A DNA stretch of 47,190 bases from Eledone cirrhosa (taxonomy: Eukaryota): NCBI GenBank assembly GCA_964016885.1, contig CAXHJY010000290.1, forward strand, positions 1 to 47,190, in the 5' to 3' direction. The notes below the pieces were generated by a model, which worked only from the letters and a program-made list of their open reading frames with translations, was not told the origin of the DNA and searched no databases. This document shows, piece after piece, positions 8 through 47,187 of this stretch. A program made the translations under genes and the position numbers. Position 1 is the stretch's first letter; the number at the start of each line of letters is the position of its first letter.

Positions 8-1600
<1,593 letters not shown>

Positions 1601-2208
1601 GGTGGCTGCCAACTCGTTTTCGAGTACGGCCACTACTTTATATCCATGTAGGAGAACCCCTACCAATGCGCTGAACGAGTGTGACTTTTTAGTCCAGCCA
1701 GCGACTTGAAAACTCTGGTACAAACACTACACCTGTGACAATTATTGACACATAGTGCTGGGCCCATGGTACCATGTGATGACAAGTGCAGAGAGATCTC
1801 CAGATATAAAGCAATGCCTGTGCCGTGAAGCTTTTATAGTGAGCAAAGGCACTGCACAAAGCCAGTCCCACTCTCTTAACCAAGATAATATTTACCAAAA
1901 AGAAGAACAAGTCAACATCATTGGATACCATCAGGGTTGCAGATGTTATATCAGAGTTTTCCTTCTCCTAGAATTCTGCCTTGACAAAGGCTAAGGGGTC
2001 ATCTCTCCCAGTGATTTTGGATAGCCATTGACTCTAAAGAGCTCCTTTGCCCTTTGACAGGTTTTGTTTTTAGTCCTGCAGGATGTCCAAAGTCACCCTC
2101 CTCACCAAGAAACCTTGGTGGGGTTGCCAGTTTAGTCGCCAACGACCCGACCATGGAACAGGTTGTACTGGGATACATGTTACCAGTAGCACCAACTGGT
2201 GACCTGAC
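1601..2208 (-). mobile_element. Family A: RTE-derived non-autonomous element, longest copy
   Basis: Minus strand carries CTAGGAGAAGGAAAACTCTGA and TAAACTGGCAACCCC motifs resembling RTE LINE 5' UTRs; terminal hairpin ACTCG-AAAA-CGAGT just before the TA tract; no ORF; three copies in the window. Confidence 0.6.
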
Positions 2209-4204
<1,996 letters not shown>

Positions 4205-5044: not shown

Positions 5045-5083
<39 letters not shown>

Positions 5084-5720
5084 CGTTGTTCCGGGTTGAA
5101 TCGGAGGTAACCACAGTAAGTAAGGTACTCAATACATAGCAGAGTATAACAGTTTTAATATAGATGAGATTCTACAGGACTAGAACTGTTTCATTCATTA
5201 GAAATCATCAGGAATCTGGGTATCAAAAAATAAATATGGTATTTATAGGTCTCTACAAGTGGTAGGAGAGGGTGGTGAGTGGGATGGGTGCAGGTCATTG
5301 GTTGATAGAAAAGGGAATTCATTAAAAGCTAATTCTACAAAGCTATAGTTAATTTTTATTTTTATTTATATTTATTTATGTTTTTAGAGTAACAAAGGCA
5401 GACAGAATTCTATAAACAGGTTCCGGATGGCATACCAATCCTTGTCAATAAGTTTCTCTTAAGCTAACAGATGTCTATAAAATCAGTGGGGGGTCAGTCA
5501 TGCTCGTTAGAATTAAAGAAAAGGGAGATTCTTTAAAAGCTAAAGTCATTAAGGTTCTACTAAGTGACAAAGGTCTAGAGAATTCTGCAGACAGATTCAA
5601 AATAATGAGTGCATATCTTACTATTATCTTCGAACTTCTCTTAAACTAATCAACAATATGCCAAAAATCAACACACATTCACAAAAAAACAAAAAAACAA
5701 AAAACAGAAAAACAAAAATC
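5084..5720 (-). mobile_element. Family C: PLE pseudo-LTR / 3' end, probably the 3' end of the PLE at 8192-9625
   Basis: Contains a hammerhead on the same strand as the upstream PLE ORF; its first ~135 nt recur at 46310-46444. Confidence 0.65.
5167..5217 (-). ncRNA. Minimal type I hammerhead ribozyme (family C)
   Basis: AGATTC-CTGATGA-TTTCTAATGAAT-GAAAC-AGTTCTAGTCCT-GTA-GAATCT: 6-bp stem I, intact core, GUA site, CTAG palindrome in loop III. Confidence 0.85.
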
Positions 5721-8012
<2,292 letters not shown>

Positions 8013-8191
8013 AAGTAAATAGGTACTCAATAAATATACGCATATACACAGGCACATAAAGACACCTCTACAGGCAGAAAATGTAGATACGAAAGAGGTA
8101 CTCACATGACCATAGTGGCCGTATTTCAGGTTGAGGAGGGGTGGGGGTTGGGTGGGGAGGAGGTATAGGGGCCAATAGGGGGAGGTCGTTT

Positions 8192-9625
8192 TTAGCCATC
8201 GGGCTTTAACACTGGCTTAAAGTGTTTGAATGTTGCAAAGTTCTTGTGCATGCAGTTCGGGCAGTGTTCAGAGAGTTTGTTCAGTAGCGGGCCCTTGGCG
8301 AATAAAATTTCGTAGCTCTCTGAAATACAAAGGTCGCAGCCCTTGTGTCCTCCGTTGTAAGAGCGCGCTTTCTGGAGTATTTTCCAATTAATCGTGAAGG
8401 GGGTGGAGTTCCTTTTGAGGTCCCAAACGTAGGAGGCGAGTGTTGTTTGATTTGATTTATCCGGTCTTCTGAAGGAGTGGGTATGGGCATACCAACGGGT
8501 CTTAAAGTTGTTGGAGGTCATGCCGATGTAAGTTTTTTTACGATCCTCGGTGCCCGAGATGACATCGCATTTGTATACGATGTCATTTGTGAGGCATTTG
8601 TTTTCTAGTGGGCATGCTTCCTTATTTAGGCAATTACATAGAGCCCCAGTCCGGGGATTGGTTTCGGAGGTGGTTGGCTTATTTAGTTTAGAGTTGTGGT
8701 TGGCTATATTCCTAGCTAGGTTAGGTGTGGTGGAGTAAGACAGTCTTATAGTGTTCTTATTAAAGATGGTGTAGTACCTATGTTGTATGGGGAAGTGTAA
8801 TTTCAGTAAAGTGAAGAAAATCCTAGCTATCGGAGTAGATACCTCTCTATTGAAGGGAGGGTTGTACCAGCTAATCTGCCTATGTCTATTCCTCCTCTGC
8901 AATTTTGCGGTGGTTTCTAGGTAAGTTATCTTATCTTTAAATCCGCTACGGGCTAGGGCGTCATTGTAGTAGGAGGCAGATGCATTAAAAATATCTTTGT
9001 TGGCGGAGAGGCCAGATATTCTAATAGAGACGCTTTTTACTAGGTTATCAGTAATGTTTTGGGGGTGGTTTGAATTAACATTAATATATTTAAGGGACTC
9101 GTTAGGTTTGTGGTACGGGTAATAGAGGGAAGTATCTAGGTCGAGAGTGACATCTAAGAAGTTGGCCCTAGTCAAATTAGAATCTATAGTTATACTAAAT
9201 CCTAGATTAGAGAAGAAAGAGCTTAAGTTTTTCCGAAACCCATCGGTGGTTCTGGGGCTAACCTTATGCAGGGCGAAGAGGCCGTCGTCTCGGTATAAAC
9301 CTCCAGTTAGGCCGGTAAAGAGGTTCTTCAGGTTATGTAGGATGTACAGGCCCACAAGGTCGCTAATTTCAGCCGAGTCACTCGCCCCCATGCTAACGTC
9401 AAATGGGGTCTGAGATTTCTTGTTGATCCAGTAAGATCCATCGTGGTATAGAAAGGTCTTACGAGCGTGGAGGATAATAACTTGCTCGGCATCGGTAATG
9501 GTGGTAAAATTCCTGGCAAAGTTAATTGCGTCCTTCAAGAGGGGCTCCGAGATAGAGGCATAGTAGTTTTCTATGTCGAGTTGTAGGAAGCGAGTGTGGT
9601 GTTTATCGGGTAATTCTTGGAACCA
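8192..9625 (-). CDS. 5'-truncated Penelope-like element ORF: RT (domains 3-7, thumb) + GIY-YIG endonuclease; possibly Naiad-like
   Basis: LDIENYY, MGAS, YRDD, FLDVTL, YHKP..YI...[49 protein letters not shown]; the first ~55 aa of the listed ORF are Helitron/microsatellite read-through. Confidence 0.92.
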
Positions 9626-9629
9626 TATA

Positions 9630-9699
<70 letters not shown>

Positions 9700-10577
9700 C
9701 TAGCAGTAAAGCCCGGCGTTGCTCGGGGTCGCTCAGTAGCTGTGTTAAAGTTACAATGTTAAGTTTCTTTTTTGGCTTAAAGTCTGTCTGCACGACTGTC
9801 TGTCTGCACGCCTAACGAAATTTACAGATACATATATTTTAAATAAACTTATATAATTTTTGCTTTTTTTTACGAAATATTTGCTTGTTTTACGTAGTCT
9901 TTAAATAGACTTGTTTTCAAGTAAAAATATTGTTTTAAAAGGCTTTTAAATGGAAATGAAGCAAAACGGAAGCTTAGTGTTCGAACTGATGAATTTTGCA
10001 GGTCAAAATTTTGCTGGCTCGACAACTGTTCGTGTATTGTGTTAATGTCATTTTAAACGCTGAGAAAGCCAGCGTAATTTTTTTAATTTTTGCACGCAGA
10101 AAATGTAAACAGAACGTAAGACGCTCAATGTAAACAGAACAAAGGGAAATAACTCGTCACTTACGCTCAAAAATCGATACATTAGATTCGATTTCGTCAC
10201 ATAGGGTGGGTCAATTTGAAATATTTTTTTTGCGATGTCTTCGCTAGGGCTCAATGTACAAGTATAGCAATTTCGGTGCAATTCCGTCAGAGATTCTAAG
10301 AGGAGATGTGTGCCAAAAATCGATAGACAGACAGACAACCACAGCTTTATATATATAGAACAAAGGGAAATAACTCGTCACTTACGCTAAAAAATCGATA
10401 CATTAGATTCGATTTCGTCACATAGGGTGGGTCAATTTGAAATATTTTTTTTCCGATGTCTTCGCTAGGGCTCAATGTACAAGTATAGCAATTTCGGTGC
10501 AATTCCGTCAGAGATTCTAAGAGATGTGTGCCAAAAATCGATAGACAGACAGACAACCACAGCTTTATATATATAGA
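9700..10577 (-). mobile_element. Non-autonomous Helitron with duplicated 5' end
   Basis: Minus strand begins TC (TCTATATATATAAAGCTG), ends with hairpin CCCGAGCAACGCCGGG then CTAG, inserted between A and T; ~220 bp 5' segment tandemly repeated (10136-10359, 10357-10577). Confidence 0.85.
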
Positions 10578-11078: not shown

Positions 11079-11228
<150 letters not shown>

Positions 11229-11595
11229 GGTGGCTGCCAACTCGTTTTCGAGTACGGCCACTACCTTATATCCATGTAGGAGAAACCCTACCGAAGCGCT
11301 GAACGAGTGTGACTTTTTAGTCCAGCCAGCGACTTGAAAACTCTGGTACAAACACTACACCTGTGACAATCACTGACACATAGTGCTGGGCCCATGGTAC
11401 CATGTGAGGACCAGTGCAGAGAGATCTCCAGATATAAAGCAATGCCTGTGCCGTGAAGCTTTTATAGTGAGCAAAGGCACTGCACAAAGCCAGTCCCACT
11501 CTCTTAACCAAGATGATATTTACCAAAAAGAAGAACAAGTCAACATCATTGGATACCATTAGGGTTGCAGGTGTTATATCAGAGTTTTCCTTCTA

Positions 11596-11598
<3 letters not shown>
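11229..11598 (-). mobile_element. Family A, 5'-truncated copy
   Basis: Near-identical to 1601-1973. Confidence 0.85.
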
Positions 11599-11633
<35 letters not shown>

Positions 11634-11646
11634 GTATATATATATA

Positions 11647-11860
11647 TTGTTATATTTGGGGAGGGTCATATTTGCGTAATATTGCCAGAATTAATAACAG
11701 AACACACTCACTGTTTGGTTGGTTTTCGCTTCTCGCTGTCTTTTATATCTGTTATTAATTCTGGCAATATTACGCAAATATGACCCTCCCCAAATATAAC
11801 AATATCTGTTTCGACACACGATTTCATATAAAAAACCTCGCAAAACTAATTCATCGCCGC
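11647..11860. mobile_element. Family F: fold-back mini-element made of the two termini of the PLE at 36302-38038
   Basis: Left part matches 36302-36400; right part matches 37927-38038; arms are inverted repeats. Confidence 0.85.
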
Positions 11861-11880
11861 TATATATATATATATATATA

Positions 11881-12098
11881 CATAAGAGAGTATTGAAGTT
11901 TGCTTGAAGCATTGTGGAACAATAAGTAAATATCTATAAGTCGTTTGGAAGCCTCGACAATGCAAATGGGTAAATCTCCGGGTAACAAGGTCCGGTGGTG
12001 GAGAGAGAGATGTAAGTGGGTGTACGTTGAGATGCGTGGTGTGTATACACACCACGCATCTCAACGTACATCTGCATTGTCGAGGCTTCCAAACGACT

Positions 12099-12102
<4 letters not shown>
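11881..12102. mobile_element. Family B fold-back element, copy 1
   Basis: 54-nt tail, outer IR 11935-11968/12069-12102, perfect 50-bp palindrome 12021-12070. Confidence 0.8.
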
Positions 12103-12190
<88 letters not shown>

Positions 12191-12209
12191 TATATATACA
12201 TACATATAC

Positions 12210-12250
<41 letters not shown>

Positions 12251-12362
12251 TATACATATATATACATATACATATATATATATATACATATATATATATA
12301 CATATACATATACATATATATACATATACATATATATACATATACATATATATACATATACA

Positions 12363-12414
<52 letters not shown>

Positions 12415-12503
12415 CATATATATACATATATATACATATACATATATATATATATACATATATACATATACATATACATATATATACATATATATACATA
12501 TAC

Positions 12504-12544
<41 letters not shown>

Positions 12545-12555
12545 CATATACATAC

Positions 12556-13158
12556 TTAGTAAGTAAGTTAATTTTTAAAAAAATTTTAAAATTTTCTTAT
12601 TTTACGTCTTTTATATTATTTTTCTGCATCCTCCTGCATTGAACAACCTAGGTACTATGACATAACTTGTGTATTTGCTAGCATTAGCGTACATTTGTAC
12701 GCATATGTTAGTAGATATACTAAATTCTCTATATTTATCTCCAAATTACTTATTTGTTGAGCAAACCTGCCAAAACCACCTACTAATTTATTGGCGTGGT
12801 AGTAGGCTTCTGTCATCTTACCATCCCACTCCTACCGACTAGCCTCAGTGTCACGTGATTGATTCTTTAGAATCTGCCATTTGACCAGAGACAGCGAGCT
12901 TTTCAGTAGATGGAATCCAGTCCCCGCTAGCTGTTCCATCTACCGAATTATTATTATTTTTATATGAGTCCCCAGTGTCCGCGCACTGCCTGGAGACTTA
13001 GATGAGAATAGACTCCCTGATGACGCAATGAATTCTCGACAATTATATTATGTAACTGTCTTTATCCCATTGCAGAAACTAATTAGTTGGAGTGAAAATT
13101 TTAGTAAGTAAGTTAATTTTTTTTTAATTTTTAAAATTTTCTTATTTTACGTCTTTTA
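12556..13158 (+). mobile_element. Family D: retrozyme-like / non-autonomous PLE-type element, copy 1
   Basis: Non-coding 545-nt monomer plus ~58-nt terminal direct repeat; hammerhead just before the second repeat; several internal hairpins. Confidence 0.75.
13012..13093 (+). ncRNA. Type I hammerhead ribozyme (family D)
   Basis: ACTCC-CTGATGA-C-GCAATG..CATTGC-A-GAAAC-TAATTA-GTT-GGAGT; palindromic stem/loop III, extended stem II. Confidence 0.85.
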
Positions 13159-13297
13159 TATATATATATATACATATACATATACATATATATACATATA
13201 TATATATATACACATATATATATATATATCCATATACATATATATATATATACATATATATATATACACATATATATATATATATATATCCATATAC

Positions 13298-13329
<32 letters not shown>

Positions 13330-13573
13330 ATATATATATCCATATACATATATATATATACATATACATATATATATATACATATACATATATATATATC
13401 CATATACATATATATATATATCCATATACATATATATCCATATACATATATATATATACATATACATATATATATATATCCATATACATATATATCCATA
13501 TACATATATATATATACATATACATATATATATATACATATATATATACATATATATATACATATATATATAC

Positions 13574-13608
<35 letters not shown>

Positions 13609-13713
13609 CATATATATATACATATATATATACATATATATATATATATACATATGTATATATATACATACATATATATATATATACATACATATATATA
13701 TATATACACATAC

Positions 13714-13746
<33 letters not shown>

Positions 13747-13904
13747 CATACATATATATATACATATATATATATACATACATATATATATACATATATA
13801 TATATACATATATATACATATACATATATATATATATACATATATATATACATACATATATATATACATATATATATATACATATGTATATATATATATA
13901 TATA

Positions 13905-14123
13905 CATAAGAGAGTATTGAAGTTTGCTTGAAGCATTGTGGAACAATAAGTAAATATCTATAAGTCGTTTGGAAGCCTCGACAATGCAAATGGGTAAATC
14001 TCCGGGTAACAAGGTCCGGTGGTGGAGAGAGAGATGTAAGTGGGTGTACGTTGAGATGCGTGGTGTGTATACACACCACGCATCTCAACGTACATTTGCA
14101 TTGTCGAGGCTTCCAAACGACTT
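13905..14123. mobile_element. Family B fold-back element, copy 2
   Basis: Near-identical to 11881-12099. Confidence 0.8.
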
Positions 14124-14125
14124 GA

Positions 14126-14209
<84 letters not shown>

Positions 14210-14215
14210 ACATAC

Positions 14216-14254
<39 letters not shown>

Positions 14255-14417
14255 TATACATATATATACATATACATATATATATATATATACATATATA
14301 TACATATATATACATATACATATATATATATACATATATATACATATACATATATATATATATACATATATACATATACATATACATATATATACATATA
14401 CATATATATACATATAC

Positions 14418-14470
<53 letters not shown>

Positions 14471-14475
14471 CATAC

Positions 14476-15077
14476 TTAGTAAGTAAGTTAATTTTTAAAA
14501 AATTTTTAAAATTTTCTTATTTTACGTCTTTTATATTATTTTTCTGCATCCTCCTGCATTGAACAACCTAGGTACTATGACATAACTTGTGTATTTGCTA
14601 GCATTAGCGTACATTTGTACGCATATGTTAGTAGATATACTAAATTCTCTATATTTATCTCCAAATTACTTATTTGTTGAGCAAACCTGCCAAAACCACC
14701 TACTAATTTATTGGCGTGGTAGTAGGCTTCTGTCATCTTACCATCCCACTCCTACCGACTAGCCTCAGTGTCACGTGATTGATTCTTTAGAATCTGCCAT
14801 TTGACCAGAGACAGCGAGCTTTTCAGTAGATGGAATCTAGTCCCCGCTAGCTGTTCCATCTACCGAATTATTATTATTTTTATATGAGTCCCCAGTGTCC
14901 GCGCACTGCCTGGAGACTTAGCTGAGAATAGACTCCCTGATGACGCAATGAATTCTCGACAATTATATTATGTAACTGTCTTTATCCCATTGCAGAAACT
15001 AATTAGTTGGAGTGAACATTTTAGTAAGTAAGTTAATTTTTAAAAAATTTTTAAAATTTTCTTATTTTACGTCTTTT

Positions 15078-15078
<1 letters not shown>
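14476..15078 (+). mobile_element. Family D element, copy 2
   Basis: Near-identical to 12556-13158. Confidence 0.75.
14932..15013 (+). ncRNA. Type I hammerhead ribozyme (family D)
   Basis: Identical motif to 13012-13093. Confidence 0.85.
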
Positions 15079-19955
<4,877 letters not shown>

Positions 19956-21122
19956 TTATAAAAAATATACCAAACAAGCCTTCAATACATCAAAAGTCTT
20001 TATTAGCCAACAATGTTTCGTCATATTAAGGACTCATCAGGGCAAGTAAAGCTACAAGAAGCACTATCGGCCAATACAAGCCAAAAACTCAGAAGAATAT
20101 GGAGTATACATCTATTAAAGCCTAGGAAGGATATCAAGGAAAAGTAGGCTAAGATTAAGAGTGAGCAGTTACAAACATAGATATAGACCAAATAGCAAGG
20201 AAGTGATTAACATGTTGAACCCACATTGTAAATATTATATAATGCAAAAACTTGAAACACAAATGGTAATATAATGCGAGAATTACAGTACGATATAGAA
20301 TATAATATAATAGATGGTGATAATAAAAAGATTAATATATGTATATATATATATATATATATATACATATATACATTAGTACAAACACAAACTAACACTT
20401 ATTAAGTATTTAAATATATATGTATATATTGTTTACAGTATAATATAATAAAGATAAAAAAATAAGAATAAAGATAAAAATAAAAATAAAATATAATATA
20501 TAATTCCCTGTCAGTGTGCATAAACAATATAAAAACATTATAATAAAGATTATAATAACAATATTATAATATATTGGCATCAAAAGATATACAAAATTAC
20601 ATCATATATATAATTCAAGGTTAACAAATAGTATAAAGTTTTACACAGGGTAAGAAAAAAATCATATAGAACTAAATAGTGTTGAAAAAATTGTGTTGAA
20701 AAAAATATCTATACCATTGTAACAAATACACGGAGGTCAGGACGTTTTACATTGGCATAAATATTACCAAAATATCACAAGATATTACAAAATATAACAG
20801 AACAGTATTTCGAATAACATATATTAAAATCTATAATACGATTACATAAAAATGATATGATATAACAACAATAATGTCAAATATCAAACAGAGTCTAAGG
20901 AAGTGCTTATTAAATATTTACGTGGTTGCGATACACAGACATATATTAATGATACATATATTAATGATACATATATTAATAATACACAGACATATATTAA
21001 TGAACAGCGTGTGGTAGTAAATTCTTCGGCTCTGTTTAATTACATTGAGCTATATCTTATACTGTCATTTCTATAATATGAAGAGTGTGTTTAACTCCAA
21101 TACACTCTATTATTTCAATTCT

Positions 21123-21123: not shown

Positions 21124-22558
<1,435 letters not shown>

Positions 22559-22642
22559 CTCTTTTACTCTCTTTTACTCTTTTACCTGTTTCAGCCATCC
22601 GGCTGAGGCCATGCTGGGGCACCGCCATTGTTGCTACACATT

Positions 22643-41711: not shown

Positions 41712-42457
41712 TGGGAGTTTGTGCAGTGGGGTGATAGTGGAGGGTGGTGCTGGGTGATAGCTCGAATGTTTTTTTCCAGTTCTTTTGCCAGATTCATTAT
41801 GGCTAAAAAAGAGGAAGAAGTTTCCTGTTTAGAAGACTGTTGGTGACTGTGGTAGTGGTTATTTTTATGTAGGTTATGGTTTTTGTTTTTGCTTTTATTT
41901 TTAATTTTATTTTCATTTATCCGACGGGTCCCCGGGAGATGGGTAAAGGGACAATCCCGGTCTAAACACAATCTGTCTCGCAGGGAAAAACGGCAGATTT
42001 GTGGATTCCTTGTTTGAGTTATTGGTGGTTGTGTTGGTGTTAAATTAGAGTATGTATTATGGTGGTGGCTGTTTGTGGGGATAGATCGTTTTGTCCTAGG
42101 TAAATGGGTGAATTTGCAGCCACTATCCGTACATATTCTATAGCGTAGAGAGTAGCGGCAAATGATGGGGTTTCGAGTGGGTGGGTATGTGGGTGTGTGT
42201 GTTGTGAGAGGTGTAGATGATGGTTTGGGTAGGATTTGACGACCTTTGTGGACTATGGGAGGGAGAGTTCTTGTACTGGTATTAGAAGGTAAATTCCTTT
42301 GCATAGCAGTAGACAAAAATGTTGTTGTAGTAGTAGTAGGCAGAGATGTTGGCAGTGGTGATGATTGGACTGCTGGGCCAGAGAAAGGATGTGGCGTTTC
42401 ATGCTGTGAGACAGAGGCTACTGGGGGGTCAATAGTTTCATTTAGTAGATCGGCCAT
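41699..42457 (-). CDS. ORF1 protein (~252 aa) with two CCCH zinc fingers
   Basis: ATG at 42457 (MADLLNE); [19 protein letters not shown] and [19 protein letters not shown]; overlaps ORF2 start. Confidence 0.75.
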
Positions 42458-42575
42458 TGTTGATGAATCAAGGAGTGGTTCACACTGTTGTTGTCGTTGT
42501 TGTTGTTGTTGCTGTTGTTGATGTTGTTGTTGTAGCTGTTGTTGATGTTGTTGTTGTAGCTGTTGTTGTTGTTGT

Positions 42576-43953
<1,378 letters not shown>

Positions 43954-43956
<3 letters not shown>

Positions 43957-44816
43957 TATGAAGAGAGAAGAAACATTTAGATATAATTAGTAATAAAATA
44001 TATCATACCTAAACTGCTTCTAAATTTATCAAGAGGATACCTCATTTTACTAGTCTCAAGAACGCGTCTACACGACGTGAGAAAGAATCCCAAAAAGCGG
44101 AGGGGGAGATAGTCACGCGATATAACGGTCGAGAAACAGAGCTAAGCCTCTTATAACCCCGAAGAAAATACCACGGAGGTGGAGGGGGTATTTATATCGA
44201 GGCCGTAGAAGAGGTGGTGTAGGCGGCGAGAAGTATGAGTAATGGAAGCTTTCCAGCTGTCCTCACACTTCAAAGATTGCTCGACCAGAGGGAGTTATTA
44301 ACAATATATTTAGAAACACACAGATACATGCGGACACACACATATATACATGAATGCATCCGCACCCAACTGTGAGTTAAGGGTGCCAACTTCACCGATG
44401 TTGCTCAATGAATGACTGGAACAGACCTATCCAGTTGAACTGGACTGAACCAGTATCAGAGTTAAAAATGCATTATGAAGAGAGAAGAAACATTTAGATA
44501 TAATTAGTAATAAAATGTATCATACCTAAACTGCTTCTAAATTCCTCGACTACGTAGTTTCGTGGCATAAACAAAAACAATATATCATAAAGACATAGAG
44601 TACTTGCGAGGTCTGCCGACTTATCAAGAGGATACCTCATTTTACTAGTCTCAAGAACGCGTCTACACGACGTGAGAAAGAATCCCAAAAGGCGGAGGGG
44701 GAGAATAGTCACGCGATATAACGGTCGAGAAACAGAGCTAAGCCTCTTATAACCCCGAGGAAAATACTGGTTCAGTCTAGTTCAACTGGATAGGTCTGTT
44801 CCAGTCATTCATTGAG
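43954..44816 (-). mobile_element. Family I: non-coding tandem-repeat PLE-type / retrozyme-like element with inverted end segment
   Basis: Direct repeat 43954-44171 / 44471-44767; inverted repeat 44404-44456 / 44764-44816; hammerhead in the second repeat. Confidence 0.7.
44543..44632 (-). ncRNA. Type I hammerhead ribozyme with U3:A8 variant core
   Basis: TCCTC-TTGATAA-GTCGGCA..TGCCAC-GAAAC-TACGTA-GTC-GAGGA. Confidence 0.75.
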
Positions 44817-46309
<1,493 letters not shown>

Positions 46310-46509
46310 CGTTATTCCGGGTTGAATCGGAGGTAACCACAGTAGGTAAGGTACTCAATACATAGCAGAGTATAACAGTTTTAATATAGATGAGATTCTA
46401 CAGGACTAGAACTGTTTCATTCATTAGAAATCATCAGGAATCTGCTTCCTGATGATTTCTAATGAATGAAACAGTTCTAGTCCTGTAGAATCTCATCTAT
46501 ATTAAAACT
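46310..46509. mobile_element. Family C fold-back mini-insertion with hammerheads on both strands
   Basis: 67-nt tail, arms 46377-46440 / 46446-46509, 5-nt spacer; hammerhead at 46393-46443 (-) and 46446-46490 (+, 3-bp stem I). Confidence 0.85.

Positions 46510-47187
<678 letters not shown>

Follow-up and report, generated by a model that had tools for sequence, protein, structure and literature searches.

A candidate PLE-mobilised, ORF-less hammerhead element in the genome of Eledone cirrhosa

The window analysed here, a 47,190-nt stretch of Eledone cirrhosa DNA (GenBank assembly GCA_964016885.1, contig CAXHJY010000290.1, positions 1 to 47,190 of the forward strand), consists largely of (TA)n microsatellite, in which mobile elements form islands. 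One island, at 12556-13158, raises the question of how a sequence that has no open reading frame, contains a hammerhead motif and comprises slightly more than one repeat unit came to be inserted there. A preliminary description had read it as the outcome of reverse transcription of a circular or tandem RNA, or else as an internally deleted PLE. On balance, we think it probable that the element is non-autonomous and PLE-mobilised, a non-LTR retrozyme in the broad sense, copied from RNA longer than one unit and landing in TA microsatellites. The core of the earlier reading, a retrotransposed ORF-less hammerhead unit made from longer-than-unit RNA, is thereby retained; its argument from three copies falls away, as these represent one insertion.

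The element, its copies and its hammerhead

Copy 1 (12556-13158, plus strand) consists of an ORF-less 545-nt unit and a 58-nt overrun, embedded in (TA)n. The terminal redundancy described earlier is real: 12556-12613 recurs at 13101-13158 with a period of 545 nt, and the two ends agree at 53 of 58 letters in copy 1 and at 61 of 61 in copy 2. The 5' copy of this repeat begins 12 nt after a predicted hammerhead cut position. The 3' copy, which resembles a PLE-type tail, ends at (TA)n, 70 nt after the cut, and by analogy with the PLE enzyme studied in vitro (PMC11167929) this end would be where reverse transcription started. Both flanks are (TA)n with interspersed C, in which a target-site duplication is indiscernible. 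The element is AT-rich (GC under 50%) and has no LTR/PBS/PPT layout, and no tRNA gene was found within the window. Its description as ORF-less holds across all six frames of the element, the longest frame running 58 codons from stop to stop. No element frame matches any of 120 PLE proteins (E up to 1), and the terminal repeats enclose no ORF with RT and GIY-YIG domains of the kind that an autonomous PLE carries.

Shortly after the cut position lie signals that resemble those of PLE leader introns. Donor-like GTAAGT hexamers occur 15 and 19 nt past the cut (the chance of such a hexamer within 30 nt is 0.018), and an acceptor-like site is found at 12651. Together they delimit a candidate 89-nt intron at 12563-12651 on the plus strand (GTAAGT, pyrimidine tract, TAG), which starts 19 nt after the cut position and spans the tail end. 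The same donor- and acceptor-like layout is seen in a second ORF-less hammerhead family of the window, at 43952-44824, referred to below as the sister family.

All three copies in the window go back to one insertion that was later duplicated as DNA. Copies 2 (14476-15078, cut after 15008) and 3 (27581-28180, cut after 28114), both on the plus strand, share with copy 1 a common 5' junction and, upstream across 350-460 nt of microsatellite, the same 230-nt element. Their downstream microsatellite interruptions match one another, unlike those of 8 other island flanks examined, and all three have the rare allele at 8 of the 10 positions at which more than 85% of family reads have another allele. 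The nested segmental duplications (11210-15100 and 26569-28200) include a SINE-like piece, the 230-nt foldback element and the studied element; at 1597-3457 the SINE-like copy is longer, and of the foldback element only the end is present. Because there was one insertion, the geometry of the ends rests on a single event. The hammerhead is indeed identical in the three copies, as had been pointed out, but this carries no weight: the 8 differences in the 487-nt body would miss the 82-nt motif by chance with P 0.23, and since the copies stem from one insertion we rejected the identity as a sign of selection.

This history also bears on the idea that a hammerhead-like fossil spread as DNA, by satellite-like duplication or as a non-autonomous DNA transposon, with no RNA step. 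Although the three window copies did arise through DNA duplication, the element has no terminal inverted repeats, and it agrees with PLE ends both in having a direct terminal repeat and in the distance between hammerhead and (TA)n. We regard this origin as highly improbable.

A descriptor search, on which the hammerhead call rests, identified a minimal type I motif at 13012-13093 on the plus strand. The predicted GUU cut falls after 13088 and the repeat restarts 12 nt on, in agreement with the preliminary description. Stem I comprises 5 bp (13012-13016/13089-13093) and is followed by CUGAUGA (13017-13023); stem II comprises 6 bp (13025-13030/13068-13073) with a span of 51 nt, and C13024 and A13074 are unpaired at its base. 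GAAA at 13075-13078 leads into a palindromic 10-nt stem III (13078-13087). None of 3000 dinucleotide shuffles of the element yields any such hammerhead. An Rfam scan of the element gave no hammerhead model match and 6 weak unrelated ones, and a scan of the whole window returned microsatellite noise and no hammerhead. Within the stem II loop, the predicted fold and read variants point to a further hairpin at 13038-13060 (plus strand), in which the G found at 13042 in 98% of the reads of one public run (X11) pairs with C13056.

The motif resembles the minimal PLE hammerheads described in PMC4209133 in its short helix I (4-5 bp in that type), long helix II and palindromic stem III, as well as in its G10.1-C11.1 pair (here G13025-C13073) and the nucleotide intervening between A9 and G10.1 (here C13024). 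It differs from that type by the additional A13074. This extra A before G12 departs from the usual core and produces a C-A mismatch at the base of stem II.

Mismatch at this position is not without precedent, and the precedent favours an alternative that we consider possible but doubtful: a classical non-LTR retrozyme, in which tandem loci give rise to a 545-nt circular RNA that a PLE reverse transcriptase copied for 1.1 turns. An axolotl retrozyme hammerhead with a U-U mismatch at the base of helix II does cleave (PMC7229834). Animal retrozymes of this kind consist of tandemly arranged repeats, each with a type I hammerhead, whose circular transcripts measure 170-400 nt (Cervera and de la Pena 2020, PMC7229834), smaller than the 545-nt unit, and the experimentally shown circles mostly bear canonical hammerheads, unlike the minimal PLE-type motif with a 51-nt stem II span seen here. 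In addition, in vitro cleavage was obtained for only 1 of 9 predicted Xenopus retrozyme dimers (10.64898/2026.07.22.740005).

Other hammerheads in the window lie at 5211, 46437, 46449 and 44627, against 0.02 matches per shuffled island set. A U-U at the base of stem II also occurs in the 5211 family, and the stem III palindrome of the 44627 motif differs from that of the element by a central AU-to-CG swap. In the hammerhead ends at 5173 and 46399 the cut lies 89 nt before (TA)n, so that they, like the element, end in the microsatellite a short way past the cut. Inspection by eye also showed, at 19952-20340 (minus strand), a core that resembles a hammerhead; its stems have 3 bp, (TA)n follows after about 60 nt, and its score is below the cut-off.

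The family in public reads and its predicted fold

Thirteen public runs were listed, with no RNA run among them, and four were compared. X1 and X4 come from one study, and X1 may be the same sample as the window; X11 comprises RAD-seq raw reads from another study with the same species label; X5 has another species label. Runs X6-X10 gave small shares, and X2, X3, X12 and X13 lay outside the comparison. Both 58-nt terminal repeats were masked, which left 24 unmasked bins; with this masking no tandem array was seen. In X11, 6646 of 12,467,656 reads fall on the unit, mostly at 82-95% identity. This is a share of 3 in 10,000 bases and corresponds to some 585 units per Gb, a figure good to an order of magnitude, since RAD-seq is biased. 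Contigs on the unit number 1047 in X1, 36 in X4 and 30 in X5. The element therefore belongs to a high-copy, diverged ORF-less family present under two species labels. Pattern scans gave no matches in metagenome, viral or prokaryote genome contigs.

The coverage of the unit speaks to a third reading, in which the unit amounts to no more than the pLTR and tail of a PLE that carries an ORF, the insertion being a 5'-truncated partial tandem of this terminal repeat. Several features would fit it: the PLE-type hammerhead, the tail, the donor-like hexamer that follows the cut, and an ATG (13028) within stem II from which 27 codons are open across the motif, as in an Anolis PLE (PMC11167929). Moreover, truncation is usual among PLE insertions, and minimal hammerheads occur widely as single motifs (10.64898/2026.07.22.740005, PMC4209133). 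However, from 12614 the sequence returns to the same hammerhead within 487 nt and contains no coding remnant. Each of the four runs covers every one of the 24 unmasked bins, and depth is sustained towards the 5' end. Among the 24 of 1124 pieces listed, some bridge 12610-12766, 12672-12816, 12723-13011, 12787-13000 and 12838-13076, and contigs spanning mid-unit occur under both species labels. The loose ends at lowest depth (12779 and 12796, among the 24 of 214 rows listed) are A/T runs rather than coding sequence. Full coverage and bridging contigs thus indicate that the ORF-less unit itself was amplified, and we judge the terminal-repeat reading improbable.

The frame opened by the ATG at 13028 was considered as a target of coding constraint and rejected. 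The listed variants at 13042, 13045 and 13051 are synonymous, yet one listed X1 variant alters other codons, and two of the three synonymous variants are private to copy 1. In some records the unit gives way to (TA)n at about 12723-12738, which may mark a second 3' end, and in one X1 contig 12619 and 12730 are joined on opposite strands, perhaps by an inversion of PLE type; events in the microsatellite could also account for both. The molecule ends listed for X11, at 12723/12726, 12785, 12946, 13034 and 13084, were rejected as ribozyme cuts: all lie on AATT sites and were taken as restriction cuts.

The claim that the body is strongly structured is borne out. The element folds at -145.5 kcal/mol (z -7.4), a value reached by none of 100 shuffles; for comparison, z is +0.75 for coding sequence of the window and -3.4 for a SINE-like island. 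On the minus strand z is -6.5, so that the z-score alone does not identify the strand, and to this extent the fold would also suit a DNA-level fossil. As a circle, the unit is predicted to have 62% of its bases paired, and strong pairing together with a more-than-unit insertion is what a classical retrozyme would show. In the MFE fold, hairpins are predicted on the plus strand at 12669-12720 (a long body hairpin), at 12906-12943 (one cited in the preliminary description) and at 12960-13004, directly upstream of the hammerhead. The three complements cited earlier all exist; CCTACTA/TAGTAGG, however, is out of register in the MFE fold, and the GTAGATGGAA hairpin is present with two mismatches in copy 3. 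At 12909, 97% of X11 reads have C, a mismatch in the 12906-12943 hairpin unless the partner base varies in a row beyond the 40 of 154 listed.

Variation in the reads is broadly consistent with this fold. Among the 40 of 154 variant rows listed, predicted pairs are broken in 6, against 13.4 expected. The deficit lies in polymorphic rows (2 of 28 break pairs, 8.2 expected, P 0.0006), and near-fixed rows give no signal (3 of 10, 4.1 expected). The 45 positions of the hammerhead core and stems contain none of the 40 rows (P 0.02). At paired sites, 9 of 11 transitions keep the plus-strand pair as G-U, which argues against spread with no RNA step. No compensatory double change was found among the 40 of 154 rows; given this, the linkage among rows and a fold predicted from copy 1, the avoidance of pair-breaking by common variants supports, and does not prove, selection on RNA structure. 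Preservation of the predicted fold over the whole unit, beyond the hammerhead, is a further point for a classical retrozyme.

The fold model also predicts a switch. In unit-length RNA the 3' arm of stem I is predicted to be captured by a decoy, CACUCC at 12827-12832 (plus strand), which would block the hammerhead. The modelled decoy pair probabilities are 0.86-0.97 in 12556-13158, and stem I forms at 0.92-0.99 when the decoy is omitted; the active hammerhead fold lies 6.7 kcal/mol above the MFE. A common variant at 12829 retains the decoy pair as G-U. Such a block would be in line with plant retrozyme and viroid circles (PMC7229834), again as expected of a classical retrozyme. The stem III palindrome has a predicted self-duplex energy of -9.0 kcal/mol and a stem III probability of about 0.1 in the monomer, from which cleavage as a dimer is predicted.

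Neighbouring elements and a model for insertion

A candidate for the enzyme source lies nearby. The PLE frame at 8195-9622, for which 723 relatives were found (E up to 0.001), contains the motifs CxCx5C, CxxC and CxH, and among its long relatives RWK occurs in 55 of 63 and DKT in 56 of 63. Such motifs characterise the Hydra clade of PLEs, whose insertion target is (TA)n (PMC8557442, section 11), and on this basis we assign the frame to the Hydra type. Pfam gave only a sub-threshold GIY-YIG match for this frame and no families for 3 relatives. At a cut-off of E 1e-3, no PLE piece in the window resembles the element at the DNA level, and no parent PLE with a matching end was found within the window. 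The frame is thus a candidate for the helper type, not a shown parent.

On the minus strand at 5081-9630, this frame (RT to GIY-YIG) is followed by about 2 kb of microsatellite and then by the 5211 hammerhead with an 89-nt tail; frame and hammerhead end are possibly one element. The 5211-type end recurs as a foldback at 46307-46515. A second PLE remnant at 36299-38042 has a GIY-YIG-like frame and, near 37720, a hammerhead-like core below the descriptor, and its inverted 139-nt end includes flanking sequence of another element. LINE copies at 22552-26292 and 38598-42576 (both minus strand) are near-full-length with endonuclease and RT frames and sit in (TA)n, as does a fragment of the second LINE at 28949-29644 (plus strand). 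Among the 120 matches listed for a neighbouring LINE frame, the highest identity is to the octopod Argonauta hians (63%, against 56% or less), the only match with a species name; together with an octopus-like repeat landscape this fits a cephalopod host. Two identical copies at 32369-32745 and 33849-34225 contain a perfect 288-nt palindrome with inner repeats. The element at 9696-10575 has an internal tandem of 220-230 nt, and its ends recall what we take to be those of non-autonomous Helentrons.

We propose the following sequence of events for the PLE-mobilised element. A source locus with two or more units would be transcribed, and the upstream hammerhead would cut, likely as a dimer through the palindromic stem III. 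The downstream hammerhead would remain uncut, possibly restrained by the decoy. A PLE would lend its reverse transcriptase and endonuclease; its enzyme would nick (TA)n and prime copying inside the RNA, 70 nt past the uncut hammerhead. Copying would then traverse one unit and halt 12 nt short of the cut 5' end. In vitro, a PLE enzyme nicks AT-rich DNA and starts internally, downstream of the hammerhead, mostly on uncut RNA (PMC11167929); such a start would account for a 3' end 70 nt past an intact hammerhead. As in non-autonomous PLE ends, the element combines an end 70 nt from the hammerhead with a (TA)n target and a partial tandem, in one independent insertion.

The form of the template is less clear-cut. 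The source must have held more than one unit, whether the template was linear or circular. A 5' end that lies 12 nt past the upstream cut suggests that the template was linear, with a ribozyme-made 5' end, and fits a linear 5'-cut RNA at least as well as a circle, which offers no reason for a stop 12 nt from the cut. Nevertheless, the sister family does not start at its cut and the PLE enzyme copies mostly uncut RNA in vitro, so the stop near the cut may be coincidence. With a single hammerhead and the initial 12 nt of the monomer missing, copy 1 cannot itself release a monomer or circle, a further difficulty for the classical retrozyme.

The sister family (43952-44824, minus strand) has a 596-nt period and comprises about 1.4 units and an inverted 5' piece. 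It extends past two hammerhead positions. Its hammerhead, the motif at 44627, has a UUGAUAA core variant and a 59-nt stem II span. In the downstream unit a gap of about 78 nt removes most of the hammerhead, which might reflect a skip over the folded motif during copying. As 1.4 units of an ORF-less, structured sequence (z -7.1), this family lends something to the classical retrozyme. At 13033-13060 the element agrees with 44108-44135 and 44704-44731 at 21 of 28 letters, the two families being otherwise unrelated. This likeness was reached by 8 of 500 shuffles over a length picked after it was seen, and a shared enzyme-binding motif is a possible explanation, offered as a weak lead.

Taken together, the 12556 and 43952-44824 families could be two members of an octopod class of large (550-600 nt) viroid-like retrozymes, with abundant circular RNAs, a minimal hammerhead with extended stem II, a decoy-silenced monomer, selection acting on the fold in its entirety, and Hydra-type PLEs as the agents of spread into (TA)n. 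We view this more ambitious proposal as speculative and rather unlikely.

Relation to described systems

A search of the literature found no report of a cephalopod hammerhead or retrozyme; the supplements of PMC4209133, PMC7229834, PMC8557442 and 10.64898/2026.07.22.740005 may list cephalopod motifs, and Repbase, Dfam and subscription journals were outside its scope. An octopus repeat annotation reports 31 recently active PLE families, and in its available main text the word 'ribozyme' is absent. If our reading is correct, hammerhead-bearing non-autonomous PLE derivatives extend to a cephalopod. The element would also provide a compact, structured, ORF-less substrate for two questions raised in the literature: the role of the minimal hammerhead during the PLE cycle, and the circular or linear-multimer nature of the template. 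The class has already been described, and the gain is therefore modest unless circle and decoy switch are demonstrated.

Among known systems, Chlamys PLEs such as MRC1 (PMC8557442) likewise have ORF-less derivatives, pLTRs and head-to-tail insertions. They are green algal, however, and mostly without canonical hammerheads, and their non-autonomous forms have known similarity to the autonomous 3' end, in contrast to the element and the PLE pieces of the window. The pLTR and tail of EN-bearing PLEs (PMC4209133, PMC11167929, PMC3846280) come closer: like the element, they have a minimal hammerhead with palindromic stem III, a partial tandem, a 3' end within the unit past the hammerhead, and intron-like leader signals, and in the Hydra clade (PMC8557442) a (TA)n target. 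The element differs from them by its lack of an ORF, by amplification of the ORF-less unit itself, by the extra A before G12 and, in the case of the 218-bp pLTR of Pen2a_Av, by a longer unit.

Animal non-LTR retrozymes (PMC7229834; Li, Clavereau and Pollet 2026, 10.64898/2026.07.22.740005) resemble the element in being non-coding, with one type I hammerhead, GC under 50%, a highly paired fold, many copies and co-occurrence with PLEs, and 545 nt lies inside their range of 51-972 bp. The element differs by its (TA)n insertion with a PLE-type tail and by a hammerhead predicted to be blocked in the monomer, most animal retrozyme circles leaving theirs free. The 2026 preprint derives retrozymes from PLE terminal repeats, handles non-LTR retrozyme and deleted PLE as one class, and counts dispersed monomers, which are common, as likely dead offspring; the window copies have 1.1 units and one hammerhead each. 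A circular-RNA model for PLEs dates from 2014 (PMC4209133). Judged by its sequence features, the element probably works like, and belongs to, this described class of PLE-derived retrozymes.
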